Origin: a virus
Reading direction: 5' to 3' (one strand)
Length of the DNA: 38,569 bases
IMG/VR virus record: IMGVR_UViG_3300032017_000003
Coordinates: 1-38,569 of that record
The translations under genes and the position numbers were made by a program. A model generated the notes under the pieces. The model saw nothing but the letters and a program-made list of their open reading frames with translations, ran no database searches and had not been told where the DNA came from. Shown one piece after another: positions 2,952-34,640 of the stretch (positions within the stretch are counted from its first letter, which is position 1; each line of letters starts with the position of its first letter).

Positions 2952-3209
2952 ATGTCGGAAGCCCATCACCAAGCCCCGAGCATCGACGAGCAGCTGCAGC
3001 AGTTGCTCCCGCCGCCACCTCCTCCTCCGCCGCCGCCTCCCGACATCCGCATCCGCGCCGGAATGAGCGTCGACGACGTCAACCGCGCGCTGGTGATCCT
3101 GACCCTCAAACACACCGCCGGCCGCCGGCGCCAGGCTGCGAAGATGCTCGGCATCAGCATGAAGACGCTCTACAACTGGACCCAGCGGTTCGGGATTGAG
3201 GGGTCCTGA
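2952..3209 (+). CDS. Fis/NtrC-type HTH DNA-binding protein with an 11-residue polyproline run (85 aa)
   Basis: The C-terminus reads VDDVNRALVILTLKHTAGRRRQAAKMLGISMKTLYNWTQRFGI, the Fis-family HTH_8 pattern. I chose ATG 2952 over the TTG at 2892. Confidence 0.75.
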   Translation: MSEAHHQAPSIDEQLQQLLPPPPPPPPPPPDIRIRAGMSVDDVNRALVILTLKHTAGRRRQAAKMLGISMKTLYNWTQRFGIEGS

Positions 3210-3955
3210 TGGGTCGCGCACGCAACATCAAGCCGGGTTTCTTCAAGAACGAGGACCTGGGCGAATGCTCACCGTGGGCGCGCCTGTGCTTCGCCGGCCT
3301 GTGGACCCTGGCCGATCGGGAAGGGCGCCTCGAGGACCGGCCGAAGCGGATCAAGGGCGAGCTGTTCCCCTTCGACTCCATCGAGGTCGACCCGCTTCTC
3401 CAGGAATTGGAGCGCTTCAAGTTCATCGTCCGGTACGAATCCGACGGCATGAAGGCCATCCAGATCTTGGAGTTCGCCAAGCACCAGACCCCCCACTACT
3501 CCGAGAAAGACAGCGTCATCAAGCCGCCTGAACTCCTGGAATCTGGTGGTCATGAAGAACACGAGATTCCAGAGATCTCCGGAGAACTCCCGAATCAGGT
3601 GGTCATAAAGGGGGGGGCGCAACCCCCTGAATCTCTGAATCCTGATTCTCTGATTCCTGATTGCAGGATTCCCGCATCATCGAACCCAGATTCCGAGCCT
3701 CCCAAGGCTTCGCCTCGGGCCACCCGCAAGTGCCCTCCGGGCTTCAAGCTCACCGAGGAACTGAAGCAGTGGGCGAAGAGAAGGGTGCCAGGAGTGAACA
3801 TCGAGACCGAGACTGAGACCTTTCGTGATCACACGTTCGCGACAGCCAGAAGCGACTGGGATGGAACGTGGAGGAACTGGATGCGCAAGGCAGCGAACCA
3901 GTCAAGACCGAATCATCAGCAAGCCTCGGCCGACATCTTCGGGGGGGCACTGTGA
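3209..3955 (+). CDS. putative replication initiator / replisome organiser (248 aa)
   Basis: It lies immediately upstream of the helicase block. The N-terminus RNIKPGFFKNEDL...ADREGRLEDRPKRIKGELFP resembles phage replication-organiser proteins, from memory. The gene contains an internal short-repeat cluster. Confidence 0.5.
   Translation: MGRARNIKPGFFKNEDLGECSPWARLCFAGLWTLADREGRLEDRPKRIKGELFPFDSIEVDPLLQELERFKFIVRYESDGMKAIQILEFAKHQTPHYSEKDSVIKPPELLESGGHEEHEIPEISGELPNQVVIKGGAQPPESLNPDSLIPDCRIPASSNPDSEPPKASPRATRKCPPGFKLTEELKQWAKRRVPGVNIETETETFRDHTFATARSDWDGTWRNWMRKAANQSRPNHQQASADIFGGAL
3627..3693. repeat. cluster of seven CTGAWTC-type heptamers (iteron-like) inside the replication gene
   Basis: CTGAATC at 3627 and 3635. 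CTGATTC at 3642 and 3650. CTGATTG at 3657. GGATTC ending at 3672. CAGATTC at 3687. GAATC and GATTC are reverse complements of each other. Confidence 0.6.
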
Positions 3956-4323
3956 TGCACAACGCCCGCCTGTTGCGCGACCTCCGCTTGCGTGGACTGG
4001 TGCCGCTGATGGTCTACATCGATCTCGACTTCCCGGTGCAGTACGGGCACGGTGTTCCGTTCAGCGTCCAGTTCCCGCACCTGTACATCGGGCCGGAAGA
4101 GAACGTGCGGACGCTCGACCTTCGAGTCCTCAAGGGCCTCACCGTGCAGGTCAACGGGTTCGATGTCGGACGCATGGCGGCGCTTGAGGCCGTCATCGCA
4201 ATGGCCGACGCGAAACGCATCATCACCGTCCTACACCGCGTGTTCGGCGAAGGCGAGTTCCAGTCCTTCCCGATCGTCAGCGTCACCGACACCGAAGGGG
4301 TGCTCACATGGCAAGACAGCTGA
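3955..4323 (+). CDS. hypothetical protein (122 aa)
   Basis: ATG 3955 overlaps the preceding TGA. The gene sits between the organiser and the helicase. Confidence 0.6.
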   Translation: MHNARLLRDLRLRGLVPLMVYIDLDFPVQYGHGVPFSVQFPHLYIGPEENVRTLDLRVLKGLTVQVNGFDVGRMAALEAVIAMADAKRIITVLHRVFGEGEFQSFPIVSVTDTEGVLTWQDS

Positions 4324-5249
4324 CCGCCGATTCGATCGACTTCGCCGCGTACGAAGCCGAGACCGAGCACGCGCAGAAGGTGCGCCCAGCTCGCGACTTC
4401 TTCGACGATGTGGTCCGGTCGTTCCAGCGCAAGGAAGCCGGCACCAGGCACGCGCACATGACCTCGACCAAGGTCGGCAGCTACCTTGAGTTTCCGCCGG
4501 GCAACGTGACCGTGTGGGCGGGCTTCAATGGGCACCGCAAGTCGATGTTCACGGGTCAGGTGGCACTCGACCTCTGCAACACCGGAGAGCGTGTCCTGAT
4601 TGCGTCCATGGAGATGGAGCCGGCCGACACGATGGTGCGCATGTCGCGCCAGGCGTCGGGCACCAACCGCCCCAGCGAAGCATGGCTCGCAGCCTTCCAC
4701 GACTGGACCGACAAACGGCTGTGGCTCTTCGACCACGTCGGCCGCATCAGTCCCGCCCAGGCGCTGGGCCTGTGCCGCTACTTCGCCGAGGAGCTCAAGG
4801 GCAAGCACGTGTTCCTCGACAGCCTGATGAAGTGCGTCACCTCCGAGGAGTCGATGGACGACACGAAGTCCTTCATCACGGACCTGACCCAGCTCGCGAA
4901 GGACACCGGCTTGCACATCCACCTCGTCGCCCACTGCCGCAAGCCCAACACCAGCGGCGAGACGCTGCCGCCGTCGAAGTACGACATCAAGGGCTCGAGC
5001 TCGATCTCCGACCAGGCCAGCAATGTCGTGCTCATCTGGTGGAACAAGGCCAAGCACGAGGCGCTGAACCGCAATCCGAACGACGAAGAGGCGCTAGTCA
5101 AGCCCGACGCGATGGCGATCGTCGACAAGCAGCGTCACGGTCCGTGGGAGGGCAAACTCTCGCTGTGGTTCGATGAGGTCAGCATGCGATTCGTCGACAA
5201 CCGACACAGTGAAGTCAGGCCCTACAAACTGCAAGGAGTGACCGAATGA
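4308..5249 (+). CDS. DnaB/T7-gp4-type replicative helicase domain protein (313 aa, no primase domain)
   Basis: Walker A-like GFNGHRKS, Walker B VFLDSLMK, HIHLVAHCRK, IKGSSSISDQASNVVLI and VDKQRHGPWEG. These match the RecA-fold hexameric helicase motif order. Confidence 0.8.
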   Translation: MARQLTADSIDFAAYEAETEHAQKVRPARDFFDDVVRSFQRKEAGTRHAHMTSTKVGSYLEFPPGNVTVWAGFNGHRKSMFTGQVALDLCNTGERVLIASMEMEPADTMVRMSRQASGTNRPSEAWLAAFHDWTDKRLWLFDHVGRISPAQALGLCRYFAEELKGKHVFLDSLMKCVTSEESMDDTKSFITDLTQLAKDTGLHIHLVAHCRKPNTSGETLPPSKYDIKGSSSISDQASNVVLIWWNKAKHEALNRNPNDEEALVKPDAMAIVDKQRHGPWEGKLSLWFDEVSMRFVDNRHSEVRPYKLQGVTE

Positions 5250-5440
5250 AGACCATCAGCGAGAAGCTGCGGAGCTTGGCGAGGAAGCCAGCAGTTTCCG
5301 ATTGGAGCCGGGACGACTTCGAGGTATGGGAGGTGGCCGACGACTGGCGCACATCACCTGTCGAAATGTTTGCACACATGAGCGACGATGAGTGGGGGAT
5401 GTTCCTCTGCTTCGTTGCTGAAGCGTTGGAGGAGTCATGA
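5246..5440 (+). CDS. hypothetical acidic protein (64 aa)
   Basis: ATGA coupling at both ends. Confidence 0.55.
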   Translation: MKTISEKLRSLARKPAVSDWSRDDFEVWEVADDWRTSPVEMFAHMSDDEWGMFLCFVAEALEES

Positions 5441-5658
5441 GCGAGTGGCAACCGATTGAGACTGCGCCGGCCGAGGGCGAATTCCTCGTCTACATGCCTG
5501 AGGAGCGCAACACTTTTCAAGTAATGCGCAAGCACCCGAACGTCAGCATCATTGGCAACGTGTTCGCTTTCGACCTCACGAAGCCTACGCACTGGATGCC
5601 GCTTCCCCCTGCACCCATCCCGCGCGCGCCCGCGCATTTGACCGAGGAGAAAGCATGA
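5437..5658 (+). CDS. DUF551-like phage protein (73 aa)
   Basis: The W.PIETAP...vLVy....W.PLP pattern is typical of DUF551. The family name is from memory. Confidence 0.5.
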   Translation: MSEWQPIETAPAEGEFLVYMPEERNTFQVMRKHPNVSIIGNVFAFDLTKPTHWMPLPPAPIPRAPAHLTEEKA

Positions 5659-6005
5659 AGCCGCAGATCCCGATGGCCGAGGGCGACGACTTCCCTGAGC
5701 CGCATATGAGGCCGGTGGAGCTGACGCAGCAGAAGGTCGACTTCAAGAACTGCCAGTTCGTCGATTGGAGCGGGTTTCAATTGACCCACATCAACGAGAT
5801 CCCCGTCGCAGACATTGACTGGCGCACTGGCCTCGCCAAGGATGAGCGCCAAGAGCCCCTGCCGCCGCCATTCACCGCCGAGGAGCACCTGCAGACCGTG
5901 CAGTCGGCGTGGAACGGGCTCACGGTGTCGCTGGCGATCGTCTGCGCGATCTTCGCTGGCGTGCTGGTGGTTCACGCTGCTGCTCGGGCGGGGTGGCTGC
6001 CGTGA
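5655..6005 (+). CDS. hypothetical protein with a C-terminal transmembrane helix (116 aa)
   Basis: ATGA coupled. The C-terminus LTVSLAIVCAIFAGVLVVHAAA is hydrophobic. Confidence 0.55.
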   Translation: MKPQIPMAEGDDFPEPHMRPVELTQQKVDFKNCQFVDWSGFQLTHINEIPVADIDWRTGLAKDERQEPLPPPFTAEEHLQTVQSAWNGLTVSLAIVCAIFAGVLVVHAAARAGWLP

Positions 6006-6313
6006 GCAACGACCGCGAACTGCTGGAGATGGCTGCGAAGGCGGCAGGATTTGATATTCAATGGCAGTATGAAAGGCCGTACGTCGGGGATTGGTTGGCG
6101 CGGAGGTGGTGGAACCCACTCACTGACGACGGAGACGCGCTGCGGCTGGCTGTGACCAGCGGTTTCTCGATCATCACAGAGCCTTTCTACGTGCGAATCC
6201 ACAGCATCAAGGACGTTTTTCTGGTGCGGGAGGAGGTGCTCTGCGATGGATTCGCAGCGACTCGCCGCGCCATCGTCCGCGCTGCTGCGGAGATCGGAAA
6301 GGCAATGCCATGA
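6002..6313 (+). CDS. hypothetical phage protein (103 aa)
   Basis: GTG 6002 overlaps the previous stop; an alternative ATG lies at 6029. DRELLEMAAKAAG...WNPLTDDGDALRLAV is a recurrent prophage motif, and I do not assert a family name. Confidence 0.55.
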   Translation: MSNDRELLEMAAKAAGFDIQWQYERPYVGDWLARRWWNPLTDDGDALRLAVTSGFSIITEPFYVRIHSIKDVFLVREEVLCDGFAATRRAIVRAAAEIGKAMP

Positions 6314-6636
6314 CCCGCCGAGCCGCCAGAGTAGACGCCAACCACGCCGAGATCGTCGGCTGCTTCCGTGCATGCGGATGCGACGTGCAGGATCTGTCTG
6401 GCGTCGGCGGTGGCGTCATGGACCTGCTGGTGCACCATAGGGCCACAAAGCGCCTGTTCCTTGTCGAGGTGAAGGACGGGAGGAAGCCACCGAGCAAGCG
6501 TGCTCTCACGGTGGCTCAAGTCGAATTCCACGCAATCTGGCCCGTGCACGTGGTCATGCGGGTGGAGGATGTGCCTGTGTTGCTGGCTGGACGGCCGGTT
6601 GCGGCACAATCCGATGCCATGAGCAGGAGCAACTGA
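6310..6636 (+). CDS. PD-(D/E)XK (VRR-NUC / resolvase-like) nuclease (108 aa)
   Basis: Reads RVDANHAEIV...GVMDLLV...LFLVEVKDG...LTVAQVEFH, which is a D...(D/E)xK arrangement. Confidence 0.55.
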   Translation: MTRRAARVDANHAEIVGCFRACGCDVQDLSGVGGGVMDLLVHHRATKRLFLVEVKDGRKPPSKRALTVAQVEFHAIWPVHVVMRVEDVPVLLAGRPVAAQSDAMSRSN

Positions 6637-6839
6637 TGACACCTGAGCTTTTCGAAACGATTCGTCAACTGCACGTCGACATCGAAAACAAGGAGCGCCG
6701 TCTTCGTGACGTGCAAACCTGTTTTGATCTACCTGGTTTCGAGCGCAATGCGCCTTTCACGCGGAGCATCAAAGCCGCCGTGATTAAGCAGCTTGAAATC
6801 GAGATCGACGAGATGAAGGCGCGATACGCAACCCTTTGA
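6636..6839 (+). CDS. hypothetical protein (67 aa)
   Basis: TGATG coupling at 6636. Confidence 0.5.
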   Translation: MTPELFETIRQLHVDIENKERRLRDVQTCFDLPGFERNAPFTRSIKAAVIKQLEIEIDEMKARYATL

Positions 6840-6850
6840 TCGGAGCAACC

Positions 6851-7063
6851 ATGAACGCCATGCAGCAGATCGCAGCGACACTGGAGGCTCACGCGGAATC
6901 CCGCACCTCGCAGGGTCTGCGCAAAGCCCGCAACCGCCGATACTGGGAGCGGCTGCGCGACAAGCTGCTGCAGCAGCGCAAGCTGTGCCGCAAGATCCGG
7001 CGGCTCGAGGTGCTGGCCCAGGTCTTCACCAACGCAACAGGAGCGCCGCATGCGAATCACTGA
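6851..7063 (+). CDS. hypothetical basic protein (70 aa)
   Basis: ATG 6851 has GGAG 6 nt upstream. The TTG at 6836 in the track is less likely. Confidence 0.5.
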   Translation: MNAMQQIAATLEAHAESRTSQGLRKARNRRYWERLRDKLLQQRKLCRKIRRLEVLAQVFTNATGAPHANH

Positions 7064-7301
7064 CGTGTCCATCAGCCGCAGCCTGGCCCAGGTCAACGCA
7101 TGGGTCTTCACCATCGAGATCGGCGGCAACAAGTTCACCGGCTACTTCGACGACTTCGGCGGCTTCATCACCATGGTGACCGAGTGCGCGAAGTACTTCG
7201 CCATTCGCAACAACCTGCTGCGCGTCAAGGACGCCGGCATGACGCGGCCTGTGATGCCTGGCAACGGGCAGACGGTGCTGCCGGGGGACAAGGCGCAATG
7301 A
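7050..7301 (+). CDS. hypothetical protein (83 aa)
   Basis: ATG 7050 is preceded by AGGAG. Confidence 0.55.
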   Translation: MRITDVSISRSLAQVNAWVFTIEIGGNKFTGYFDDFGGFITMVTECAKYFAIRNNLLRVKDAGMTRPVMPGNGQTVLPGDKAQ

Positions 7302-7735
7302 CTTGCATCGCATGGGATGGGAAGACGCTGGCGGCCGACAAGCGCGCCTGCTACGGCTGCATGATCTCGACCGTGACCAAGATCCATCGGGTGCGCGGGC
7401 TGCTGTGTGGCGGCTCGGGCGACCTGGACCTGATCGGGCAGATGAAGGATTGGCTCGCCGCCGGCCGTGAGCCGTCGCAGTTCCCCGCCGCGCAGCGCGA
7501 CAAGGACAGCTACGTGCCATTCCTGGTAATCGAGCGAGACGGTACCGCATCGCTGTACGAGCGTACGCCGCACCCGATCCGCTACGAGCAAGCGCAGATC
7601 GCCATCGGCTCGGGCCGCGAGTTCGCTCGGGCCGCGATGCTGCTCGGCAAGGATTCGCGCGGCGCCGTTGAGGTCGCGTGCCAGCTCGATAGCGGATGCG
7701 GCAACGGCATCGACACGCTGACGATCGAGGAATGA
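7298..7735 (+). CDS. HslV/proteasome-beta-like Ntn-hydrolase-fold protein (145 aa)
   Basis: Starts MTCIAWDGKTLAADKR, with Thr directly after the initiator Met. Also has VTKIHRV, LCGGSGDLD and IAIGSGREFARAAML. These align by eye with HslV TTIV..., KKVRRL, GFAGGTADA and IAIGSGG.YA.AAA. Confidence 0.6.
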   Translation: MTCIAWDGKTLAADKRACYGCMISTVTKIHRVRGLLCGGSGDLDLIGQMKDWLAAGREPSQFPAAQRDKDSYVPFLVIERDGTASLYERTPHPIRYEQAQIAIGSGREFARAAMLLGKDSRGAVEVACQLDSGCGNGIDTLTIEE

Positions 7736-8193
7736 CCATGGCCTTCGACCAAGCCATCGCCGACCGAATCTGCGAGTTGATCTGCGAGGGCAAGCCGCTC
7801 AAGCCGATCTGTCGCATGGAAGGCATGCCGAGCTGGCGCACCGTGTACACCTGGATCAACGACGTGCCGGAGTTCGCGAAGGCGATGGAAGAGGCCCGGC
7901 GGCTCGGTGCGCGTGCGATCGCGGAAGAGGCGCTCGAGATCGCCGACAAACCGATGGAGGGCGTCGAGATCACCACCGACGAGAAGGGGGTCAGCGAGAA
8001 GCGCGGCGACATGCTCGGGCACCGAAAGCTGCAGATCGAGACGCGGCTGAAGCTGCTGGCCAAGTGGCACCCGCGCGAGTACGGCGACAAGGTGCAGATC
8101 GGTGGAGATCCTGACGGCGTCCCGGTCAAGACGGAAAGCACCGTCGTGCTCACTGCCGAGGAAGCCTACAAACGCATGCTCGGCGGCGCATGA
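7732..8193 (+). CDS. terminase small subunit (153 aa)
   Basis: Reads ICELICEGKPLKPICRMEGMPSWRTVYTWI...HRKLQIETRLKLLAKWHPREYG, a common small-terminase pattern. It lies directly upstream of the large terminase. Confidence 0.7.
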   Translation: MTMAFDQAIADRICELICEGKPLKPICRMEGMPSWRTVYTWINDVPEFAKAMEEARRLGARAIAEEALEIADKPMEGVEITTDEKGVSEKRGDMLGHRKLQIETRLKLLAKWHPREYGDKVQIGGDPDGVPVKTESTVVLTAEEAYKRMLGGA

Positions 8194-9707
8194 TGGGGGT
8201 GCCATCATGGCCTCCTGATTACGAGGCCGTGTATCGAGAGCGCGCCGAGCGCTTGGCACGAATTCGCAGTGACTCGGCAATCCTGCCGGGTTTGAAGGCG
8301 CACTACCGCGACGACCCGGCCGCCTTTGTGACCGATTGGGGCATGACCTTCGATCCCCGCAATGCGGAGGTTGGGCTGCCCACAACCATGCCGTTCCTTC
8401 TGTTTCCAAAGCAAGCTGAATACCTCCAGTGGCTGCGTGAGCACTGGCTCGCTAGAAAGGACGGGCTTGCCGAGAAGTCTCGCGACATGGGGGTCTCGTG
8501 GCTATGCGTTGCCTTTGCCGTTTGGATGTGGAGCTTTCATCCTGGAACTGTTGTCGGCTTTGGTAGCCGCAAGGAAGAGTACGTCGACGACCTGAATGAT
8601 CCAAAGTCGCTTTTCTGGAAGGCTCGCCAGTTCATCAACTTGCTACCCATCGAGTTCCGCCCGGCCGGTTGGGATCCGAAGAAGCATGCCCCATTCATGA
8701 CCATCACGAATCCGCAGAACGGCGCGGCAATTGTTGGCGAGTCGGGCGACAACATCGGGCGTGGCAACCGCACCAGCATTTACTTCAAGGACGAATCAGC
8801 TTTCTATGAGCGCGCCGAGAGCATCGATGCAGCGCTAAGCCAAACGTCGAACTGCAAGATCGACGTGTCAACACCCAACGGCAACGGCAATCCCTTCTAC
8901 CGCAAGCGCCACGGCGGCAAGGTTGACGTGTTCACGTTCCATTGGCGCGACGATCCGCGCAAAGGCCTAGAGTGGTACGCCAAGCAGCAGAACGACCTTG
9001 ACCCTGTGGTATTGGCTCAGGAAGTGGACATCGACTACAACGCCAGCACGAACGACGCCTGGATTCCCGGCACACTCGTGGAGCAGGGGCAGCAACTCGG
9101 CCCAGCTGATGTGGAAGTGAATGGTCCCTGGATGATTGGTGTCGACGCAGCGCACATGGGCGACGACGAGAGCGTCATCACCTGCCGGCGCGGCCTGTTG
9201 ACGTTGCCGCCCATTCCTCATAAGTCACTGGATGGGCCTGCCCTTGCTGCAGCGGTTGAAGAGCGGTGCCGGCAGTTCGAGGACGCGGGGCAGATCATCG
9301 GCATGATCGCCATCGAGTTGGATGGGCCAGGCGTCAGCGCCTATGACACGCTCAAGCGTGGCAAGTGGGCTGCGGTCACGGTCGGCGTGCACACCGGAGC
9401 CAAGCTGTCGGATGACCGGAACTACAACGTCAAGGCGCGCATGTGGCGGGCGGCACTGGACTACCTCAAGACAGGTGGCTGCTCGATCGGGCGTGATCCC
9501 GAGCTTAAGTCGCAGCTGAGTTCGTACCGATACGGCTATCGGGACGGTCTGCTGCTGATGGAAGCAAAGAAGGATTACAAGAAGCGCGTGGGCAAATCGC
9601 CCGACCGTGCCGACTCGTGGGTTCTGACGTTCTCGGTGCCGCCGAAGCGGGAGAAGCCCAAGCCCGAACTGCCCATACCCATGGTCAGCCCCTTCGCCCG
9701 GCGCTAA
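8190..9707 (+). CDS. terminase large subunit (505 aa)
   Basis: ATPase-like segment SIYFKDESAF and nuclease-type IGVDAAHMGDDESV. Size and position, between the small terminase and the portal, also fit. Confidence 0.88.
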   Translation: MMGVPSWPPDYEAVYRERAERLARIRSDSAILPGLKAHYRDDPAAFVTDWGMTFDPRNAEVGLPTTMPFLLFPKQAEYLQWLREHWLARKDGLAEKSRDMGVSWLCVAFAVWMWSFHPGTVVGFGSRKEEYVDDLNDPKSLFWKARQFINLLPIEFRPAGWDPKKHAPFMTITNPQNGAAIVGESGDNIGRGNRTSIYFKDESAFYERAESIDAALSQTSNCKIDVSTPNGNGNPFYRKRHGGKVDVFTFHWRDDPRKGLEWYAKQQNDLDPVVLAQEVDIDYNASTNDAWIPGTLVEQGQQLGPADVEVNGPWMIGVDAAHMGDDESVITCRRGLLTLPPIPHKSLDGPALAAAVEERCRQFEDAGQIIGMIAIELDGPGVSAYDTLKRGKWAAVTVGVHTGAKLSDDRNYNVKARMWRAALDYLKTGGCSIGRDPELKSQLSSYRYGYRDGLLLMEAKKDYKKRVGKSPDRADSWVLTFSVPPKREKPKPELPIPMVSPFARR

Positions 9708-9778
9708 ACTCGCGCCACCGCTGAGCATTCGAGCGTCCAGCAGCTCCCGTTCCACGTGAAACCCGTGGGGAGTTGAGC

Positions 9779-11854
9779 ATGACGATCAGCAACAGCGAGC
9801 GACTGAACAAGGTTCACGAAGACGCGATCCGCGAATTCGACCAGATCCAGGTGTCGATGCGCGCCGAGCGACTGCAGTGCTTGCAGGATCGCCGGTTCTA
9901 CTCCATCACGGGGGCGCAGTGGGAGGGGCCGCTGTCCGAGCAGTTCGAGAACAAGCCGCGGTTCGAGTTCAACCGCGTGCACCTGGCCGTCATCCGGATC
10001 ATCAACGAGTACCGGAACAACCGCATCACCGTCGACTTCCAGCCGAAGGACGGCGCGAAGGACGACGAGCTCGCCGACACGTGCGACGGCCTGTACCGCG
10101 CTGACGAGCAGTCCTGCACCGCGAACGAGGCCTACGACAACGCATTCGAGGAAGGGGTCGGCGGCGGCTTCGGCGCATGCCGCCTGCGCGCAGTCTATGA
10201 AGACGAGTACGACGACGAGAACGAGTGCCAGCGCATCCGCATGGAGCCGATCTTCGACGCAGACAGCTGCGTGTTCTTCAACCTCGATGCCCAGCGCCAG
10301 GACAAGGCCGACGCCAAGCGCGCCTACGTGCTGACGCCGTACACGCTGGCCGCATACAAGGAAGAGTGGGAGGACGATCCCAGCAGCTGGCCGAAGATGA
10401 TCACGCAGTCCGAATTCGACTGGTGTACACCGGACATCGTGTGGGTCTGCGAGCTGTACAAGATCGAGGAGAAGTCCGAGGTCGTGCGCTACTTCCGCGG
10501 CCTGGACGAAGACGCCGAGGACATGCGCGTCACGCAAGCGCAGGTCGACAACGACGAGAAGCTGCTGGAGCAGCTGGCCGCCACCGGCTTCCGCCTGGTG
10601 CGCGAGAAACGCGTCAAGCGCCGCAAGGTGCACAAGTACATCCTGAGCGGCGGCAAGGTGCTCGAGGATTGCGGCTACGTGCCGGGCACCGAGATCCCGG
10701 TGATCCCGTTCTACGCCAAGCGTTGGGTCGTCGACGGCGTGGAGCGCTGCATGGGTCACGTGCGCCTGGCCAAGGACGCGCAGCGCCTGAGCAACATGCT
10801 CATGTCGTGGCTGGCCGAGATCGCCTCGCGGTTCGATATCGAGAAACCGATCGTCACGCCCGAGCAGATGCAGGGCTGGGCGACGATGTGGGCGCAGGAC
10901 AACGTGAAGAAGTTCCCGTATCTGTTCCTGAACGCGCAGACCGATGCCGAGGGCAACGTCATTCCGGGCAGCGCAACGCCGCAGGCCTACACGAAGTCGC
11001 CGCAGATCCCGCCGGCGATGGCAGCACTGATGCAGATGGCCGAGCAGGCGCTGCAGGATCTCCTCGGCAACCAGCAGGCCGGCGAACAGTTGCAGCCGAA
11101 CCTGTCTGGCAAGGCGGTGGAACTCATCCAGAACCGCCTGGACATGCAGGTCTTCATCTACATGTCCAACTTCGCGAAGTTCATGAAGCGCTGCGGCGAG
11201 GTGTGGCTTTCGATGATGAAGGACATCGTCGTCGAGAAGTCTCGCCCGATGAAGACGATCGACAAGCAGGGTGACTCCGCGCAGGTCATCATGAACCAGC
11301 CGGAGTACAACAAGGACGAGGCCAAGGAGATCATGGCCAACGACCTGACGAAGGCCAACATGGAGGTCACGACCGATGTCGGTCCGTCCTCGAGCAGCCG
11401 CCGCGCCGCCACCGTGCGCGCGCTGACCGGCATGCTGCAGCTGACGCAGGATCCGGAGATCCAGCAGGTCCTGAGCGCCATGGCGATGCTGAACATGGAA
11501 GGCGAGGGCATCAGCGAGGTTCGCGACTACTTCCGGGCCAAGCTGGTGCGCATGGGCGCCGTCAAGCCGACCGAGGAAGAGATCGCGGAGATGGAGACCG
11601 AGAAGCAGCAGAGCGCCCAGCAGCCGCCTGACGCGCAAACGCAGTTCCTGCTGTCTTCGGCCGAGGAGGCATCCGCTGCCGCCGCAGAGAAGCGGGCGCA
11701 GACCGTCGAGACCCTGGCGTCCGCGAACCTCAAGAACGCCCAGGCAGACAAGACAGTGGCCGAGACGGTCGGCACGCACCAGAACACGCAGATCGCCGGC
11801 GTCGAGGCTTTGCGTGGGATCGTGCAGCCCGATCTCGGTCAGGCGCCCACTTGA
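9779..11854 (+). CDS. portal protein, P22 gp1-like (691 aa)
   Basis: ATG 9779 has GGGGAG upstream. Long stretches are collinear with P22 gp1 as I recall it: DFQPKDG, GVGGGFGACRL, KRRKVHKYILSG, IPVIPFY, VRLAKDAQRLSNMLMS. Confidence 0.88.
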   Translation: MTISNSERLNKVHEDAIREFDQIQVSMRAERLQCLQDRRFYSITGAQWEGPLSEQFENKPRFEFNRVHLAVIRIINEYRNNRITVDFQPKDGAKDDELADTCDGLYRADEQSCTANEAYDNAFEEGVGGGFGACRLRAVYEDEYDDENECQRIRMEPIFDADSCVFFNLDAQRQDKADAKRAYVLTPYTLAAYKEEWEDDPSSWPKMITQSEFDWCTPDIVWVCELYKIEEKSEVVRYFRGLDEDAEDMRVTQAQVDNDEKLLEQLAATGFRLVREKRVKRRKVHKYILSGGKVLEDCGYVPGTEIPVIPFYAKRWVVDGVERCMGHVRLAKDAQRLSNMLMSWLAEIASRFDIEKPIVTPEQMQGWATMWAQDNVKKFPYLFLNAQTDAEGNVIPGSATPQAYTKSPQIPPAMAALMQMAEQALQDLLGNQQAGEQLQPNLSGKAVELIQNRLDMQVFIYMSNFAKFMKRCGEVWLSMMKDIVVEKSRPMKTIDKQGDSAQVIMNQPEYNKDEAKEIMANDLTKANMEVTTDVGPSSSSRRAATVRALTGMLQLTQDPEIQQVLSAMAMLNMEGEGISEVRDYFRAKLVRMGAVKPTEEEIAEMETEKQQSAQQPPDAQTQFLLSSAEEASAAAAEKRAQTVETLASANLKNAQADKTVAETVGTHQNTQIAGVEALRGIVQPDLGQAPT

Positions 11855-11949: not shown

Positions 11950-12825
11950 ATGGATCCGGAAGACGACAACCTGGTGATCGAGACCGAAATCGAAGGCAGC
12001 GAGACGCTGAACGACGACAAGGAAACCACACCGGGCGACACCGAAGCCGAGACGGCCGAGGAGTTGGTGGTCAGCATCGGTGATGAGCCGGTCTCCAAAG
12101 AAGGTGAAGAGTTCAACGGTCAGCCGGCACCGGACTGGGTCAAGGACCTTCGTCGGGAACGCAAGGAAGACAAGCGGCTCATCCGCGAGCTGCAGGAAAA
12201 GCTGAAGACGAACATCGCGCCGCCGGCGCCGATCGAGGTAGGCAAGCGCCCGACCCTCGCGGACTGCGAGTACGACGAGGAGCTGCACGAGAAGAAGGTC
12301 GACGAGTGGCTCAAGCGCAAGTCCGAGGCCGAGGAGCAGGAACGCAAGAAGGTGGCGGCGGCGCAAGAGGCCGAGTCCGCGTTCAAGAAGACGCAGGAGA
12401 ACTACGCCAAGGCAGCGGCCGACCTGAAGAAGAAGGTTCCGACCTTCGACGAGGCCGAAGCCGCGATCAAGGACACGTTCAGCGTCGCGCAGCAGGGCAT
12501 GCTGCTCGACCTGGCCAAGACGCCCGAAGAGGCGGCGCTGCTGACGGCGGCGATCGGCTCGAATGCCAAGCTGCTCAAGGATCTCTCATCGATCGGAAAC
12601 CCCGTGAAGTTCGTCTCGGAAGTCGCGCGCATCGCCGCGCAGGTGAAGACAGCGCCGCGCAAAGCTCCCATCCCGGAGCGCCAGGTTCGGGGCAATGCCT
12701 CGGTGCCCGGCGCCGTGGATTCGCAGCTGAAGCGGCTCGAAGAAGAAGCTGACCGCACCGGTGACCGCACGAAAGTGGCACACTACCGTCGTCAGCTGCT
12801 GCTGAAGCAGCGCGAAAAGCGCTGA
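11950..12825 (+). CDS. scaffolding protein (291 aa)
   Basis: It lies between portal and coat. It has an acidic N-terminus and a Lys/Glu/Ala-rich composition that looks coiled-coil. Confidence 0.7.
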   Translation: MDPEDDNLVIETEIEGSETLNDDKETTPGDTEAETAEELVVSIGDEPVSKEGEEFNGQPAPDWVKDLRRERKEDKRLIRELQEKLKTNIAPPAPIEVGKRPTLADCEYDEELHEKKVDEWLKRKSEAEEQERKKVAAAQEAESAFKKTQENYAKAAADLKKKVPTFDEAEAAIKDTFSVAQQGMLLDLAKTPEEAALLTAAIGSNAKLLKDLSSIGNPVKFVSEVARIAAQVKTAPRKAPIPERQVRGNASVPGAVDSQLKRLEEEADRTGDRTKVAHYRRQLLLKQREKR

Positions 12826-12947: not shown

Positions 12948-14225
12948 ATGGCCAACGGTTTCACGAAGCAAGAAACGGTGATGTTCGACGAGCTGCTCGC
13001 CGGCTTCAACGACGCACTCGTCCTCTCCAGTCTGGTCAACATCTACGAGACCGACCAGACGATCATGGAGCGCTCGAACGACCAGATCTGGCGTCCGCAG
13101 CCCTACATCAACCAGTCGTTCTCTGGCCTGGACCAGACCGCCAACTTCGGCGATATCGTCCAGCTGTCGGTGCCGGCGTACATCAACACGATCCGCTCGT
13201 CTCCGTGGGTGCTGACCGCGAACGAACTGCGTGACGCGATGCAGGAAGGCCGCATCCGCGACGGCGCGAAGCAGAAGCTGGGCTCGGACATCAACGTCGA
13301 CGTGAACAACGCGATCTGCAACCTGGGCTCGCTGGTGGTCAAGCGCACGGCGGCGGCCTCGGGCTTCGACGACGTGGCGCTGTGCGACTCGATCATGAAC
13401 GAGCAGGGCGTGGTCAACGACGGGCAGCGGTACATCGCGTACAGCTCGCGCGACTACAACAGCATGGCCAGCAACCTGGCCGGCCGCGGCACCGTCGCCG
13501 GCATCGTGCAGACCGCCTACGAGCGCGCCTACGTGAACCGGGTCTCCGGCTTCGACGTGTTCAAGATGGACTACGCGCCCCGCCTGGCAGCTGCCACCGC
13601 GACCGGCGTCGTGATGAACGGCGCCAACCAGCGCTACGTGCCGACTGCGTTCTCGCTGACGGCCGGCACGCTGACCCCGGTCAACACCGACAACCGCTTC
13701 CAGACCATCGCCATCACGGTCGGCGGCTCGACGATCAAGGTGGGCGACTGCTTCACGATCGCCGGCGTCAACGCGGTGCACCACATCACCAAGGTGGACA
13801 CGGGCCAGCTGAAGACGTTCCGCGTGGTGGCGATCGTCACCGGCGCGGGCGGCACGGGCACGATCCAGATCACGCCGCCGATCATCGCTGCCGACGCGGC
13901 GCCGACCGCGGCCGAGCTGCAGTACAAGAACGTGACCGCAACGCCGGCCAACGGCGCCGCCTTCGTGTTCCTGAACACCGCGGCTGCAGCAATGAACCCG
14001 TTCTGGATCAAGGGCGCTGTCGACCTGCTGCCGGGCCGCCTGGTCTGGCCGGCGGACGGCGGCCTGGCCGTGATGAGCGGCACGACCGACCAGGGCATGC
14101 AGCTGACGATGACCAAGCAGGCCGAAATCAAGACCGGCAAGGTCAACTTCCGGGTCGACACGAAGTACGGCGTCGCGGTGACGAACACCGAGATGTGCGG
14201 GATTGAGCTTTTCTCACAACCATGA
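12948..14225 (+). CDS. major capsid (coat) protein, P22 gp5-like (425 aa)
   Basis: AGGAG ribosome-binding site. MERSNDQIWRP and DNRFQTIAITVGG.TIKVGDCFTIAGV parallel P22 gp5 segments MQRSSNTIWMP and DNRFATVTL...GDKISFAGV, from memory. Confidence 0.85.
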   Translation: MANGFTKQETVMFDELLAGFNDALVLSSLVNIYETDQTIMERSNDQIWRPQPYINQSFSGLDQTANFGDIVQLSVPAYINTIRSSPWVLTANELRDAMQEGRIRDGAKQKLGSDINVDVNNAICNLGSLVVKRTAAASGFDDVALCDSIMNEQGVVNDGQRYIAYSSRDYNSMASNLAGRGTVAGIVQTAYERAYVNRVSGFDVFKMDYAPRLAAATATGVVMNGANQRYVPTAFSLTAGTLTPVNTDNRFQTIAITVGGSTIKVGDCFTIAGVNAVHHITKVDTGQLKTFRVVAIVTGAGGTGTIQITPPIIAADAAPTAAELQYKNVTATPANGAAFVFLNTAAAAMNPFWIKGAVDLLPGRLVWPADGGLAVMSGTTDQGMQLTMTKQAEIKTGKVNFRVDTKYGVAVTNTEMCGIELFSQP

Positions 14226-14699: not shown

Positions 14700-15179
14700 A
14701 TGACCACGAAGCTCCAACTGGTCGAGAACGCCTACGAGGAGCTGGCGCTTGCCGGCTACGTGTTCGATCTCGAGCCGGAGGAGCTGGATTTCGGGCTGCG
14801 CAAGCTCGAAACGCAGATGGCATCGATGGCGGCGCAGGACTTCAACGTCGGCTACGCGTTCGGCAGCGACATCAACAGCGAGTCGGGCCTGCCGCTGATC
14901 GCCGAGGAGGCCGTATACCTGGGGCTCGCCATCAATCTGGCGGCCAGCAAGGGCAAGGATGTCCGCCCGACCACCAAGACCAATGCGCGGCGCGCCATGG
15001 CCTCGCTGTCCGCATTCGTGGCGCGCAGCCAGGTCCAGCAGCAGCAATACCCCGGCACGATGCCGCGCGGCGCAGGCAACAAGCCGTGGCGCTCGCTCAG
15101 CTCGCCCTTCTTCACCGTTCCGGACACCGCGCCGCTGCAGAACAGCGCCGATGGTGGCCTCGAATTCCTCGGGGAGTGA
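14700..15179 (+). CDS. head-to-tail adaptor, P22 gp4-like (159 aa)
   Basis: YPGTMPRGAGNKPW parallels P22 gp4 YPSRMPTGSGNS. Size and position after the coat gene also fit. Confidence 0.65.
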   Translation: MTTKLQLVENAYEELALAGYVFDLEPEELDFGLRKLETQMASMAAQDFNVGYAFGSDINSESGLPLIAEEAVYLGLAINLAASKGKDVRPTTKTNARRAMASLSAFVARSQVQQQQYPGTMPRGAGNKPWRSLSSPFFTVPDTAPLQNSADGGLEFLGE

Positions 15180-16923: not shown

Positions 16924-18342
16924 ATGCAAGTCCCGCTGCTGAACGGGATCTACGTCGATTCGACGCCTGATTTCCGCACCTCCTACCCGGTGAACATGAT
17001 GCCGGTGCCGAAGTCGACCGGCATTGCGGAGGGCTATCTGCGGCCGGCGGAGGGCCTGAGCGCCGTGGCCAGCGGCGCCGGCGTGGATCGCGGGGCAATC
17101 AACTGGAACGGTCTACATTACCGGGTGTCTGGCTCGAAGCTGATCCGCATCAATGCGAATCAGACGACCACTGTTCTCGGCGATATTGGGGTCGGAAGCC
17201 AGGTCACGATGGATTACTCATTCGACGTGCTGGCCATCGCATCAGCTGGCCTGCTGTGGTACTGGGACGGCACCTCGCTTACCTATGTGACCGATCCGGA
17301 TATCGGCAACGTCGTCGATATGAAGTGGATCTCGGGGTACTTCATGACGACGGACGGTACGAACCTGATCGTGACCGAGTTGAATGACCGGTACTCCGTG
17401 AATCCTCTGAAGTATGGCTCTTCGGAGGCGGATCCGGATCCGGTGCTGGCCGTCAACGAACTGCGCAACGAAGCCTACGCCTTCAACCGGTACACGATCG
17501 AGGCATTCCAGAACGTGGGCGGCGACAACTTCCCATTCCAGCGCGTCGAGGGCGCCCAGGTGCCGCGCGGCATCATTGGCACGCATGCCTACACCAAGTT
17601 CCTGAACACGTTCGCTTTCGTCGGGAGCGGTCGCAACGAGGCGCCTGCCGTTTACCTGATGACTGCGGCCGATACCGAAAAGCTCTCGACGCGAGAGATC
17701 GACGTGATCCTGGAGCAGTTCACCGAGGCGCAGCTTTCAACGGCGGTAGTCGAATCGCGCATCTTCAAGAACCACGAGTTGTTGTACATCCATCTTCCTG
17801 ACCGCACACTTGTCTTCGATGCGATGTCAACGAAGGCGATTGGGCAGCCTGTCTGGTTCGTGCTGAGCAGCGCCCTCATAGGCATGAGCACCTACCGCGC
17901 CCGCAATTTCGTGTGGGTGTATGACCAGTGGTTTGCCGGCGACCCAACCACTGTGAATGGCGTCGTGTGCGAGCTCCGAACGGACTTCAGCTACCACTAC
18001 AACACCGAGATCGGCTGGGAGTTCGGCACGATGGTGCTCTACAACGGCGGCAACGATGCAATCGTGCTTAGCATGGAGCTCGTTTGCCTCCCGGGCCGTA
18101 TCCTGCCGCAAGACCCCACGGTGTGGACCTCCTACTCGCTCGATGGCGAGACGTGGAGCCAAGAGCGCCCGAAGCAGCTCGGCAAGCAGGGGCAGCGCAA
18201 CAAGCGCGTGGCCTGGCGAAACCAGGGGACGATCCGCAACTACCGCATGCAGAAGTTCCGCGGCACCAGCCAGGGTCATGTTCCGATGGTGCGGCTGGAG
18301 ATGATTCTCGAGCCCCTGATGACCGAGGCGACTAGTGGCTAG
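16924..18342 (+). CDS. tail hub / packaged-DNA stabilisation protein, P22 gp10-like (472 aa)
   Basis: Same length as P22 gp10 as I recall it. YPVNMMPVPKSTG..GYLRP parallels YLPVNMLATPKE...GYLRSFPG, and HELLYIHLPDRTLVFDA parallels HELLIIHLPRHVLVYDA. Confidence 0.75.
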   Translation: MQVPLLNGIYVDSTPDFRTSYPVNMMPVPKSTGIAEGYLRPAEGLSAVASGAGVDRGAINWNGLHYRVSGSKLIRINANQTTTVLGDIGVGSQVTMDYSFDVLAIASAGLLWYWDGTSLTYVTDPDIGNVVDMKWISGYFMTTDGTNLIVTELNDRYSVNPLKYGSSEADPDPVLAVNELRNEAYAFNRYTIEAFQNVGGDNFPFQRVEGAQVPRGIIGTHAYTKFLNTFAFVGSGRNEAPAVYLMTAADTEKLSTREIDVILEQFTEAQLSTAVVESRIFKNHELLYIHLPDRTLVFDAMSTKAIGQPVWFVLSSALIGMSTYRARNFVWVYDQWFAGDPTTVNGVVCELRTDFSYHYNTEIGWEFGTMVLYNGGNDAIVLSMELVCLPGRILPQDPTVWTSYSLDGETWSQERPKQLGKQGQRNKRVAWRNQGTIRNYRMQKFRGTSQGHVPMVRLEMILEPLMTEATSG

Positions 18343-19227: not shown

Positions 19228-19734
19228 ATGATGCTCGCTGAAGTCGCTACCAAGGCGCGCCCCAACTCAGGGGCGGTTCGGATTGAACCGATCCACGATG
19301 AGGCGTTGATCGGCGCCACGCTGCGGCATCCGCGCATCTTCCCCCACATCCGAGACGACGGCTGCCCGACCGCGGCGTCACTGCAGATCGTCCTCTCCGA
19401 CTCTCTGCGCTACCTCGGCGTGTTCGACGGAGACAGATTCCTGGGCCTCTTCCTGGCGCACCCGCACAACTTGGCGCTCTTCGAGGTGCACACGTGCCTG
19501 TTGCCCGAGGCGTGGGGGCCGACAGCCGTAGAGGCGGCAAAGGCGTGTGCCGCGTGGCTTTACGAGAACACGCCGTGCCGCCGCATCGTGACCTGCGTGC
19601 CAGAGGGCAACGTGCTGGCGCTGCGGCTCGCGCGCCAGGCCGGCATGACCGAATACGGCCGCAATCCGCGCAGCCTGCTCCGCGATGGAGTGCTGCTCGA
19701 TCAAATCCTCCTCGGCATGAACAAGGAAGAGTGA
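19228..19734 (+). CDS. GNAT-fold-like protein at the P22 gp14 position (168 aa)
   Basis: FEVHTCLLPEAWGPTAVEAAKACAAWLYENTPCRRIVTCVPEGNVLALRLARQAGMTEYG resembles an acetyltransferase-fold core. It is syntenic with gene 14. Confidence 0.5.
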   Translation: MMLAEVATKARPNSGAVRIEPIHDEALIGATLRHPRIFPHIRDDGCPTAASLQIVLSDSLRYLGVFDGDRFLGLFLAHPHNLALFEVHTCLLPEAWGPTAVEAAKACAAWLYENTPCRRIVTCVPEGNVLALRLARQAGMTEYGRNPRSLLRDGVLLDQILLGMNKEE

Positions 19735-20423
19735 TGCCAGCAGCTGCAGTGGCCGGAGCGGCCGTCATCGGTGGAATCTACTCGGCGCGCAAGTCGGCGA
19801 ACGCGGCCCAAGATGCGTCGAATGCACAAGTTGCGGCCAGCGACAGGGGCATTGCCGAGCAACAGCGCCAGTTCGATGCGGTGCGTGAACTGCTGCAACC
19901 CTACGTCAACACCGGAACCACGGCGCTTGGTCAGCAGGGTGACCTGACAGGGCTGAATGGAACTGGCGCCCAGCAAGCGGCCATTGCCGCGCTGCAGAAC
20001 TCGCCGCAGTTCGCTGCGCTGCAGCAACAAGGCACCAACGCCATCCTCCAGAACGCCTCGGCCACCGGAGGACTGCGCGGCGGCAACACACAGGCCGCGC
20101 TCGCACAGTTCAGCCCGGCACTCTTGAGCCAGCTGATAACCGATCAGTATTCGCGCCTGGGTGGCCTGTCGGCGATGGGTCAAAACGCAGCAGCAGGGGT
20201 TGGGAATGCCGGCATGCAGACCGGTTCCGGCATCTCGAACCTGCTTCAGCAGCAGGGTGCCGCGCAGGCTGGCGGCGCGCTCGCGCAAGGACGCGCACAG
20301 GCCGGCTATGTGAACGCCTTCGGCAATGCAATCGGCGCCTATGGCGCTCTCGGCGGCTTCGGTGGTGGCGGCGGCAGCAGCAGTCCCTCGAACGCTGAAC
20401 TCGCAGCCAAATACGGGTTCTGA
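19734..20423 (+). CDS. ejection / internal virion protein, gp7 position (229 aa)
   Basis: ATG 19734 overlaps the previous stop. It has an N-terminal hydrophobic segment and is Gly/Gln/Ala-rich. Its length matches P22 gp7 as I recall it. Confidence 0.5.
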   Translation: MPAAAVAGAAVIGGIYSARKSANAAQDASNAQVAASDRGIAEQQRQFDAVRELLQPYVNTGTTALGQQGDLTGLNGTGAQQAAIAALQNSPQFAALQQQGTNAILQNASATGGLRGGNTQAALAQFSPALLSQLITDQYSRLGGLSAMGQNAAAGVGNAGMQTGSGISNLLQQQGAAQAGGALAQGRAQAGYVNAFGNAIGAYGALGGFGGGGGSSSPSNAELAAKYGF

Positions 20424-20425: not shown

Positions 20426-21835
20426 ATGGTTTCACCAATCGACTACACCCAAGACGTTCAAACGCCGTTCCAGTCGGTGCTGCAGGGCTACGCCGGCGGT
20501 GCGCAGATCCGCAACGACCAGCAGCAGCAAGCAGCGATCGCGGGGCAACAGGCCGCCGCACAGCAACAGCAGCAATTGCTGTCCCGCTTGGCCAGCAACC
20601 CGAGGGCAACCGCGAACGACTATGCGGCCGTGATGACGCAGATCCCTTCTGCGGCAGAAAATCTCGCGCGCGCATGGACGACGAAGAACACGGCCCAGCA
20701 ACAGGCGCAGGCATCCGATCTGCTGCAGTGGGGGTCCGCGATCAAATCAGGTCGGCCAGACATCGCGGCTGAGCTGCTGAACAAGCGCGCCGATGCCATG
20801 GAGGCGAGTGGCGGCCAGACTCCTGAATCACAGGTTCTGCGCACGCATGCGCAGACCATCGAGGCGCATCCAGAGTTCGCGCTCGGCCTGATTCAGGCGC
20901 TTCTGTCGGCCAACCCGAACGGCAAGGAAGCCGCGACGACGCTCGCATCGTTCGGCGCCGAGAAGCGCGCCGAGGACGCTGCCCCGGTTGACCTCGAGAC
21001 GAAGAAGGCCGAGGCCAAGATCAAGGGTGCTGATGCAACAACCGCGCTCGAGAAGAACGTATGGGACATCGCGAACGTCAAGAGCCAAGTTGCGGACCGC
21101 TCGGCGCGCCTCGGCCTGGACCGCGACAAGCTCACCTCCGAAACGCAGCTCAGACTCACCGAACTGCAGCAGAAGTGGGGCGAACTGCCGGAGTTCGTGG
21201 CCAAGCAGGTCAACGAAGCGACGACCGACGCCATGGCCGCCGATCAGTCGGCGAAGAAGATGCTGGATCTGGCTGCGCAGCTGGAGAAGGAAGGCGGCGG
21301 CTATGGCGCGTTCTCGACCGCCGGCGAGTGGATCAAGCGCGTGACCGGCAACCAGAACGAAATGAGCCGGCTCCGCGCCGAGTACAACCGCATGGTGACG
21401 CCGTCCGCCATGGCTGCCTACAAGCAGGTCGCGTCCGGCTCAACCTCCGACAAGGACATCGAGACGGCGATGACTGGCGTCCCGAAGGACACGGCCGACG
21501 CGGCAACCATGGGCGCCTATCTGCGCGGTGTCGCGAAGCTGCAGGCCTACGACTCCATCCTCCAGAACGCCAAGAGTGAATGGCTCGGCGCGGTGCGAAG
21601 CCTCGGCAAGGCGAAGGGCGATGTGGAAATCGACGGCGTGAAGGTTCCTGCTGGCACGACCTTCAAGAACTTCAGCGACGAGTACATGAAGCGCAAGACC
21701 GCTGAGCGCACCTCGGCCGACACGATCGCGAAGAGTCCGTATGCCCAGTTCGCGAACCCGGTGCAGCCGGCGCAACCCGCCGCGCCGCCCGCCAATCCGC
21801 TGCAGAGCGTCCTGCCGGTCACCGGGGGCATGTGA
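20426..21835 (+). CDS. ejection / internal virion protein, gp20 position (469 aa)
   Basis: Size and order fit. The composition is Gln/Ala/Lys-rich and looks helical. Confidence 0.5.
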   Translation: MVSPIDYTQDVQTPFQSVLQGYAGGAQIRNDQQQQAAIAGQQAAAQQQQQLLSRLASNPRATANDYAAVMTQIPSAAENLARAWTTKNTAQQQAQASDLLQWGSAIKSGRPDIAAELLNKRADAMEASGGQTPESQVLRTHAQTIEAHPEFALGLIQALLSANPNGKEAATTLASFGAEKRAEDAAPVDLETKKAEAKIKGADATTALEKNVWDIANVKSQVADRSARLGLDRDKLTSETQLRLTELQQKWGELPEFVAKQVNEATTDAMAADQSAKKMLDLAAQLEKEGGGYGAFSTAGEWIKRVTGNQNEMSRLRAEYNRMVTPSAMAAYKQVASGSTSDKDIETAMTGVPKDTADAATMGAYLRGVAKLQAYDSILQNAKSEWLGAVRSLGKAKGDVEIDGVKVPAGTTFKNFSDEYMKRKTAERTSADTIAKSPYAQFANPVQPAQPAAPPANPLQSVLPVTGGM

Positions 21836-27177: not shown

Positions 27178-27467
27178 TCACCTATGTACTCGCGGCCGTC
27201 CTGCTGGCCGTTGCCGCCCTGCTGGCCTGGCTTGTCGTCACTAAGCGGCTCGTGTTCCCGTTGATGTTCGAAGCTGGCATGACGTTGCTGGCGTTTGGTA
27301 TCGCGGCGAACGGCCTGCGCGTGCTGGCTGACGACGCGCCAAATCTGCGCGCCTGGGCGCTGGCTGGCGTCGGCGCAGCCCTGATGCTGATCTCCTACTT
27401 CCGCGAGTCGCGCCGCAAGCCGGAGATCGGGGGGATCGGACGACGCATCATGAGGGGTCCGCGATGA
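27174..27467 (+). CDS. second holin/antiholin-like membrane protein, about 3 TM segments (97 aa)
   Basis: ATGA coupled. Basic C-terminal tail RESRRKPEIGGIGRRIMRGPR. Confidence 0.5.
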   Translation: MITYVLAAVLLAVAALLAWLVVTKRLVFPLMFEAGMTLLAFGIAANGLRVLADDAPNLRAWALAGVGAALMLISYFRESRRKPEIGGIGRRIMRGPR

Positions 27468-34636: not shown

Positions 34637-34640
34637 GGGG

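Follow-up and report, generated by a model that had tools for sequence, protein, structure and literature searches.

What is a proteasome-like peptidase for in a phage whose head needs no protease? The question is raised by the IMG/VR virus record IMGVR_UViG_3300032017_000003, of which positions 1 to 38,569 were analysed (this whole stretch of 38,569 nucleotides is called the window below), and by one gene in it, an open reading frame (ORF) of 145 codons at 7298..7735 on the plus strand, placed directly before the small terminase gene. The window is a P22-like phage module, and P22-type heads mature without a protease. A first, sequence-only reading had taken the product for a short HslV/proteasome-beta-like N-terminal-nucleophile (Ntn) hydrolase, a reading upheld here by PHROG 1040, by profile comparison and by AlphaFold2 with Foldseek. 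What that reading overstated was the novelty of the gene: it belongs to the PPH family, which was described computationally in 2021 by Fuchs et al. (PMC8665760), and RefSeq already uses the annotation 'peptidase HslV family'. Since both the family and the annotation exist, the identification is ordinary; the new elements are the copy in a P22-like phage and a survey of the gene across loci. We consider it likely that the PPH protein serves as an accessory peptidase in the cytoplasm, where its targets would be proteins or peptides of the host or the phage, and not as an obligatory maturation protease of P22-type proheads.

The product (MTCIAWDGKTLAADKR...GIDTLTIEE) matched PHROG 1040, 'peptidase HslV family', over its full length (E = 8.5e-30). 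With a word-indexed search of protein sequences, 752 relatives close to 145 aa in length were retrieved, and several of them carry JGI names such as '20S proteasome alpha/beta subunit' and 'HslVU peptidase subunit'. In an exhaustive HMMER search, which covered 1.84 billion cluster representatives (clusters at 50% identity), the family comprised 9202 clusters at a threshold of E <= 1e-3, of which 4444 remained at E <= 1e-10. Relatives were located on 346 IMG/VR contigs and in genomes of 71 bacterial species. The median length of 150 relatives was 148 aa, and where longer ones (P0126, P0151 and others) are extended at the C-terminus, the added part has the look of low-complexity sequence or read-through and not of a domain. 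The sole NCBIfam match was to TIGR03634, archaeal proteasome beta, with 16 bits against a cutoff of 224, and the NCBIfam HslV model gave no match.

A profile and alignment of 42 relatives, designated A1, was used for the profile search of the PDB, for AlphaFold2 and for hhalign. The single sequence had given only chance matches in the PDB (E >= 0.5). The A1 profile found dozens of archaeal and eukaryotic 20S beta, HslV and BPH chains at E = 1e-3 to 1e-2; together with the PHROG match, this is the outcome of the profile search which the first reading had suggested. The seven top matches of the profile were designed tandem-repeat proteins aligned on one helix, and they were treated as artefacts. 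The AlphaFold2 model built from A1 had a pLDDT of 95.4 and a pTM of 0.89. Foldseek matched it to 598 PDB chains at E <= 1e-3, so the Ntn fold, without which the proposal would have fallen, was recovered with significance. All of the 50 listed PDB matches were HslV, 20S subunits or BPH, with E = 3e-8 to 2e-6, probability 1.00 and query TM-scores of 0.61-0.78. Many phage proteins of the same fold were also found in BFVD, where they are labelled 'Proteasome subunit beta' or, in Caulobacter phages, 'putative Ntn hydrolase domain'. The likeness of the PPH protein to HslV and the proteasome far exceeds chance.

The gene starts with ATG 7298, within an ATGA at 7298-7301 that it shares with the stop of an 83-aa ORF of unknown function (7050..7301, plus strand). 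Upstream of 7298 the GC content of third codon positions (GC3) was 0.41 in the PPH frame against 0.94 in the frame of the 83-aa ORF, and it was 0.86 within the PPH gene. Among 150 diverse relatives the N-terminus is MT in 129 and MS in 12, making 141 of 150. The ORF list extends the gene in frame to ATG 7100, a start which would bury the threonine, the kind of start that the first reading had named as a refutation; it was rejected on GC3, by which the added stretch is non-coding in the PPH frame, and on the N-termini of the homologs. The GC3 frames and the MT or MS ends of the relatives thus place the start at 7298 with the threonine not buried, and, with the ATGA overlap, support the earlier statement that the product begins Met-Thr. 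By its sequence, the product is one without a propeptide. The 83-aa ORF had a GC3 of 0.92 in its own frame, gave no PHROG or PADLOC match and was not conserved beside PPH in the other loci examined.

Each of the four motif correspondences to HslV that had been proposed by eye was reproduced by the alignment of the A1 profile to E. coli HslV. In hhalign, D14 paired with Asp17, K28 with Lys33, G38 and G41 with Gly45 and Gly48, and S105 with Ser124, while Thr2 of the PPH protein aligns with Thr1 of HslV. Conservation was counted in the top 150 HMMER cluster representatives. Residue 2 was Thr in 135 and Ser in 12, with no other residue found there. At D14 and likewise at K28 the residue was the same in all of the 148 sequences that align there; G41 was conserved in 147 of 150, G104 in 150, S105 in 127, G106 in 148 and G135 in 150. 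A position after the initiator methionine that accepts only Thr or Ser looks like the pattern of a nucleophile under selection. Gly38 and Gly41 form the putative oxyanion-hole region, by their alignment with Gly45 and Gly48 of HslV, and Ser105 is a candidate counterpart of proteasome Ser129, supported by the profile alignment. Near its C-terminus the protein has the motif D131-S-G-C134-G-N-G, which resembles the proteasome motif Asp166-x-x-Ser169-Gly. By this motif matching, Asp131 and Cys134 are candidate counterparts of Asp166 and Ser169. Judged from the aligned residues, the catalytic set is complete and strongly conserved, and we infer that the PPH protein is enzymatically active.

With 145 aa against 176 aa in E. 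coli HslV, the protein is 31 residues shorter, close to the 30 or so first estimated. The structure model indicates where the difference lies. DSSP assigned helix H1 to residues 43-54, a four-residue helix to 64-67, a strand to 75-78, H3 to 107-115 and H4 to 120-130, and hhalign placed gaps within the H1-H2 region of HslV. H2 is thus absent from the model, with H1, H3 and H4 kept. A loop of codons 53-74 (7454..7519, plus strand), delimited by DSSP on the model, the hhalign gaps and conservation, takes the place that H2 holds in HslV and the proteasome. The loop comes after Trp52, which is at the end of H1, and in it are the family-specific residues Phe62 (F or Y in relatives), Pro63, Gln66 and Asp70; W52 is found in 150 of 150 relatives and P63 in 148. 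The segment Trp52-Pro63 (7451-7486) is both invariant and family-specific, and the loop may be a surface for binding a partner or a substrate. H1 and H2 are on the side that is turned towards HslU in HslV and towards the alpha ring in the 20S core. Since H2 is replaced by a loop, classical HslU docking by PPH appears doubtful. H3 and H4 are the helices that join the two catalytic rings in HslV and the 20S core (PMC8665760), and since both are kept, assembly into a ring or double ring is plausible.

The PPH gene ends with TGA at 7733-7735, and an ATGA is present at 7732-7735. Translational coupling to the small terminase through this ATGA had been suggested, and the ATGA and the tight coupling stand; a terminase start at 7732 does not. 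A Shine-Dalgarno sequence for the small terminase, GAGGA, was read at 7726..7730 on the plus strand, inside the 3' end of PPH. It lies 7 nt before ATG 7738 but only 1 nt before ATG 7732, and ATG 7738 is most likely the start. With this spacing the two genes would be 2 nt apart and not overlapping, which is still tight coupling. The packaging and head genes follow on the same strand: the small terminase (7738-8193; phrog_1482 'terminase small subunit', E = 2.3e-33), the large terminase (8190-9707; phrog_2, E = 2.2e-26), a P22-type portal (9773-11854; phrog_156, E = 1.8e-126), a scaffolding protein of 291 aa (11950-12825; phrog_648, E = 1.5e-41) and a P22-type coat protein of 425 aa (12948-14225; phrog_283, E = 3.4e-71).

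The survey of gene context covered about 165 fetched loci, in which large terminases and portals were recognised by iterated phmmer from several seeds. The counts are lower bounds, because this recognition is limited by the seeds. A GC3-based gene caller, which over-extends starts, was used for neighbourhood sketches only. Tblastn with the terminase and portal proteins of the window, run on the loci collected by then, gave hardly any matches, the locus backgrounds being too diverse. Distances were counted in 42 non-redundant loci that had 3 kb or more of sequence on either side of PPH: at least 15 have a large terminase or portal within 1.5 kb, at least 21 within 3 kb and at least 29 within 7 kb, in every case on the strand of PPH. 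Close relatives (57-64% identity) stand in packaging and head modules at differing positions. PPH precedes a small terminase, of one of three families, in phages whose portal is of the P22 or SU10 type; it lies between the large terminase and the portal (L081, phiM5, L152, L136) or, in L082, has a T7-type portal on one side and the scaffold and capsid genes on the other. In other loci it stands directly before the large terminase (L137, L163, L132). In about 18 loci, mostly Burkholderiales prophages, it is placed between adaptor Ad1 and head-closure Hc1 and overlaps both, with Neck1, the tail terminator and tail genes coming next. Such a slot is very unusual for a non-structural gene. This lineage is represented by L053:5435-8874 and about 17 further loci (L014, L018, L026, L032, L035, L037, L046, L064, L108 and others).

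Some copies are placed elsewhere. PPH stands beside a DNA polymerase in L144 and L165, and in small divergent cassettes among tail genes in PEi21 and Jedunavirus. Xp10 has its copy, gene 50L, in the early operon that runs leftward, at a distance of five genes from p7, the inhibitor of RNA polymerase. No conserved partner gene was found across the family; the largest cluster of neighbours comprised 18 of about 150 loci and came from one prophage lineage. PPH is thus usually found within late morphogenesis operons, in many slots (at least five) and with no constant partner. This placement is a point absent from the 2021 description of the family, and the many positions together with the lack of a constant partner narrow the plausible roles. 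The phiM5 record has the flag 'detected in phage particle proteome' on portal, scaffold and capsid but not on the peptidase.

Two further observations were made on the neighbourhoods. In the closest IMG/VR relatives (59-69% identity), L086:7399-9303 and L089:7435-9311, the PPH gene is followed by two tandem paralogues of about 310 aa and by no terminase; the paralogues belong to phrog_12985, of unknown function, with weak similarity to 'virion structural protein'. The second observation concerns chromosomes. About 20 Acetobacteraceae genomes (Roseomonas, Falsiroseomonas, Muricoccus) have a PPH-like gene of 37-47% identity in a housekeeping context, not a prophage context. One subgroup has the order pyrB-[PPH]-(TctC)-amidohydrolase-plsY-dprA, and the other has dnaX-recR-GH108 lysozyme-[PPH], convergent to EcsC-hslU-hslV. 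In L042 the PPH-like gene is at 6001-6471, hslU at 7315-8619 and hslV at 8644-9156, the latter two on the minus strand; L059 and L066 also carry a PPH-like gene, and L051:4985-11329 is a further locus of these chromosomal contexts. Fuchs et al. listed only Pseudoalteromonas and Mesorhizobium as exceptions with a bacterial context (PMC8665760).

Put together, these results suggest the following course. The primary product would begin with fMet-Thr, and the host deformylase and methionine aminopeptidase would expose the threonine as Thr1, as expected from enzyme specificity and from the analogy with E. coli HslV. Threonine is a permitted second residue for methionine aminopeptidase, and E. coli HslV is likewise matured by removal of methionine, which exposes its threonine. 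As removal of methionine would make threonine residue 1, no propeptide or self-cleavage would be needed. The hydroxyl of Thr1 would then attack peptide bonds, helped by Lys28 and Asp14 (Lys33 and Asp17 of the proteasome). The subunits would probably oligomerise through the kept H3/H4 face, with no ATPase partner supplied by the phage. PPH is co-oriented with the packaging and head genes and tightly coupled to the small terminase, so it is probably made together with their proteins. That it would not be an obligatory head-maturation protease is suggested by its variable slot, by head types that vary, by a scaffold and coat of the ordinary P22 kind and by the lack of a virion flag in phiM5. The window gene is a clean example of PPH in a P22-like phage, and since this type of head needs no maturation protease, the question of what a phage proteasome homolog is for is easy to pose genetically.

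Several points weigh against an accessory peptidase of this kind. The match to Pfam PF00227 (21.6 bits, E = 1.9e-4) is slightly below the cutoff of 22.4 bits; precomputed PF00227 matches are present in many close relatives. The geometry of the catalytic Thr, Lys and Asp is deduced from alignment only. The loss of H2 could alter or abolish ring formation, and proteasome-type subunits normally have activity only as part of the assembled complex, not singly (PMC8665760). As to the time of expression, a scan of 3-12 kb for sigma-70 promoters and terminators recognised none. The clustering of PPH near packaging genes keeps a morphogenetic role alive. In the literature we found no enzymatic, structural or genetic experiment on any PPH member; phage HslV or PPH is mentioned there at the level of annotation only, for example where a phage genome is noted to have 'HslV without HslU', and the paper on PhiGT1 is silent about the peptidase.

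PPH could instead be a protease of counter-defence or host takeover, cleaving a specific host protein such as an immune sensor or effector that terminase, portal or capsid proteins set off, and it would do so while these proteins are being made. Its behaviour is that of an accessory gene, with a patchy distribution, many insertion slots and no fixed partner, and its co-expression with structural proteins is likely. The Xp10 operon near p7 is one of early host takeover, and the catalytic residues are strongly constrained. The search for anti-defence relations was less favourable: neither PADLOC nor an anti-defence family gave a match, and no defence system was found to co-vary with PPH. Proteasome-type enzymes are, moreover, usually broad and not sequence-specific. 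We regard this explanation as possible, on the unlikely side.

A more far-reaching proposal is that PPH is a 'mini-proteasome' of the late operon, with a role in virion production that consists in the clearance of scaffold or intermediates or in the destruction of immune proteins. If true, in head types regarded as protease-free it would remove or process scaffold or intermediates of assembly; as an alternative, it would destroy the host immune proteins that sense terminase, portal or capsid, as those appear. Either way it would do so with no dedicated ATPase, in a new quaternary arrangement enabled by the loss of H2. This proposal we hold as rather doubtful.

A true protease of prohead or virion maturation would be produced alongside the head proteins and would act during assembly on scaffold, coat, portal or ejection proteins, trimming or destroying them, and the window would then represent a protease-dependent variant of the P22 type. 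The placement speaks for it: PPH is adjacent to and co-oriented with terminases, portal, scaffold and coat in the window, its close relatives are found between large terminase and portal and others between Ad1 and Hc1, and at least 21 of the 42 scorable loci have the same-strand large terminase or portal within 3 kb. The copies between portal and scaffold or capsid occupy the classical slot of a prohead protease. Self-compartmentalising proteases of host type have, besides, been recruited as prohead proteases before (ClpP-like S14, S49). However, the slot is not fixed and the head types differ, with P22, SU10 and T7-like portals; some relatives are beside DNA polymerase or in the early operon of Xp10, and the fold of PPH is unrelated to that of known prohead proteases. 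The scaffold and coat of the window match P22-type families, and their 291 and 425 aa are near the lengths of P22 gp8 (about 303 aa) and gp5 (about 430 aa). No sign of proteolytic processing was noticed in either, in an inspection short of detailed examination. In phiM5 virions the peptidase is unflagged although the scaffold is flagged. We find a dedicated maturation protease improbable.

A route through host HslU is likewise improbable. PPH could form a hybrid HslU-PPH protease that redirects degradation, or it could titrate HslU and so blunt the host HslVU. It belongs to the HslV/BPH group, and any unfolding would have to be supplied by the host, because a phage ATPase is absent: tblastn of the window with E. 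coli HslU gave a best E of 7, in agreement with the earlier statement that the genome has no HslU-like ATPase. In three syntenic Roseomonas-type genomes the PPH-like gene is convergent to the hslVU operon and one gene away from it. These three chromosomal loci were the only ones of about 165 with hslU within flanks of 6-7 kb, and the proximity counts as one syntenic event. On the protein itself, H2 on the HslU-facing side is deleted in favour of the family-specific loop, and a pure decoy could do without an invariant Thr/Ser1, Asp and Lys. As BPH shows, a proteasome homolog can apparently lack an unfoldase (PMC8665760).

A function other than proteolysis, as a connectase-like protein ligase or transpeptidase or as an amidase on a non-protein substrate, is very unlikely: the proteasome-like family does include connectase, a highly specific monomeric ligase with the same N-terminal nucleophile (PMC8665760), and the loss of H2 may preclude a degradation chamber, but the signature insertion of connectase between S3 and S4 is absent from the secondary structure of the model, PPH groups with HslV and BPH, both peptidases, and no candidate substrate gene was conserved beside PPH in the loci surveyed.

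The rest of the window is in keeping with a P22-like module. On the plus strand, a replication initiator (3209-3955) and a helicase/primase (4308-5249) precede a chain of small ORFs at 5437-7301, which leads up to PPH. The chain consists of seven ORFs of 67-134 aa with overlapping or abutting starts and stops, of which only phrog_924, phrog_5086 and, weakly, phrog_31600 were matched, all of unknown function. The ORFs 5655..6005 and 5909..6313 share 97 nt, and one of their starts is probably wrong because of this overlap. PADLOC gave no match for PPH or for the five genes upstream of it. Downstream of the coat gene the plus strand carries adaptor Ad3 (14700-15179), head closure Hc3 (16924-18342), a DNA-ejection protein (19494-20423), a transglycosylase-domain internal or tail protein (21832-24471), an endolysin (27464-27925) and a spanin (27922-28344). 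The transglycosylase-domain protein has 879 aa, with an N-terminal lytic transglycosylase domain and matches to phrog_2013, phrog_13449 and phrog_342, and it is probably ejected, as an internal or tail protein, to digest peptidoglycan at entry. On the minus strand are a RecT/RecE module (33707-35891), with a RecT-like annealing protein and a RecE-like exonuclease, an HNH endonuclease (36752-37270), and a 618-aa protein (30435-32294) with a domain resembling sulfatase-modifying factor enzyme (FGE; phrog_9572, E = 2e-20). The latter had no PADLOC match, and an FGE-domain gene is odd cargo for a P22-like phage. No integrase was found among the window ORFs scanned.

It remains to compare the window protein with the known systems. 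The prohead proteases (HK97/T4 gp21 assemblin-like, ClpP-like S14, lambda gpC S49) resemble it only in that some PPH genes occupy the slot from portal to scaffold; they have an unrelated fold and Ser/His catalysis where PPH would use an N-terminal Thr, and the position of PPH is not fixed relative to the capsid gene. HslV (ClpQ, MEROPS T1B) has the Ntn fold in common with it, as well as counterparts of Asp17, Lys33, Gly45, Gly48 and Ser124, a compact form without a C-terminal H5 and a Thr1 exposed by removal of Met, which for the window protein is predicted. The differences from HslV are the 31 missing residues, the lack of H2 and the lack of an hslU partner gene, and the identity in structural alignments is about 17-20%. 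BPH, the beta-proteobacterial proteasome homolog (PDB 5ovs, 5ovt), matched the window model in Foldseek at E = 7e-7 and is central in the published cluster map, with PPH radiating from it (PMC8665760). In contrast to the window protein, BPH is some 200 aa long and retains H2; it also has a long acidic pore loop, forms a tetradecamer and is chromosomal, not phage-borne. RPC is related to PPH, and these two are the only homologs without H2 (PMC8665760). The window protein differs from RPC in that it stops right after the core, at 145 aa, without a C-terminal domain; phage proteins of 275-279 aa in BFVD share its N-terminal fold.

The closest comparison is with PPH as published: proteins of about 140 residues without a propeptide, from Caudovirales and prophages, mostly in Proteobacteria, placed in group I with HslV and BPH and having the Thr1/Asp17/Lys33/Gly47 core in common with them (PMC8665760). 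The window gene is a member of this family, as every descriptive feature checked was found in it, the comparison being with the published description. The two agree in length, in the beta-sandwich with H1, H3 and H4 and without H2, in the catalytic set, in the lack of a propeptide and in the tailed-phage origin. RefSeq annotates phage relatives, including those of PEi21, Jedunavirus, Xp10 (gene 50L) and CcrSC, as 'peptidase HslV family'. None of the 32 cultured-phage records matched is obviously P22-like, judged from names, and to no copy in a cultured phage does the window PPH have more than 38% identity. Among proteasome-like lineages, PPH alone is considered truly viral, and with its 9202 clusters it is a very large one. 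No defining feature of the family differs in the window copy, which is set apart by its place, in a P22-like podovirus right before the small terminase.

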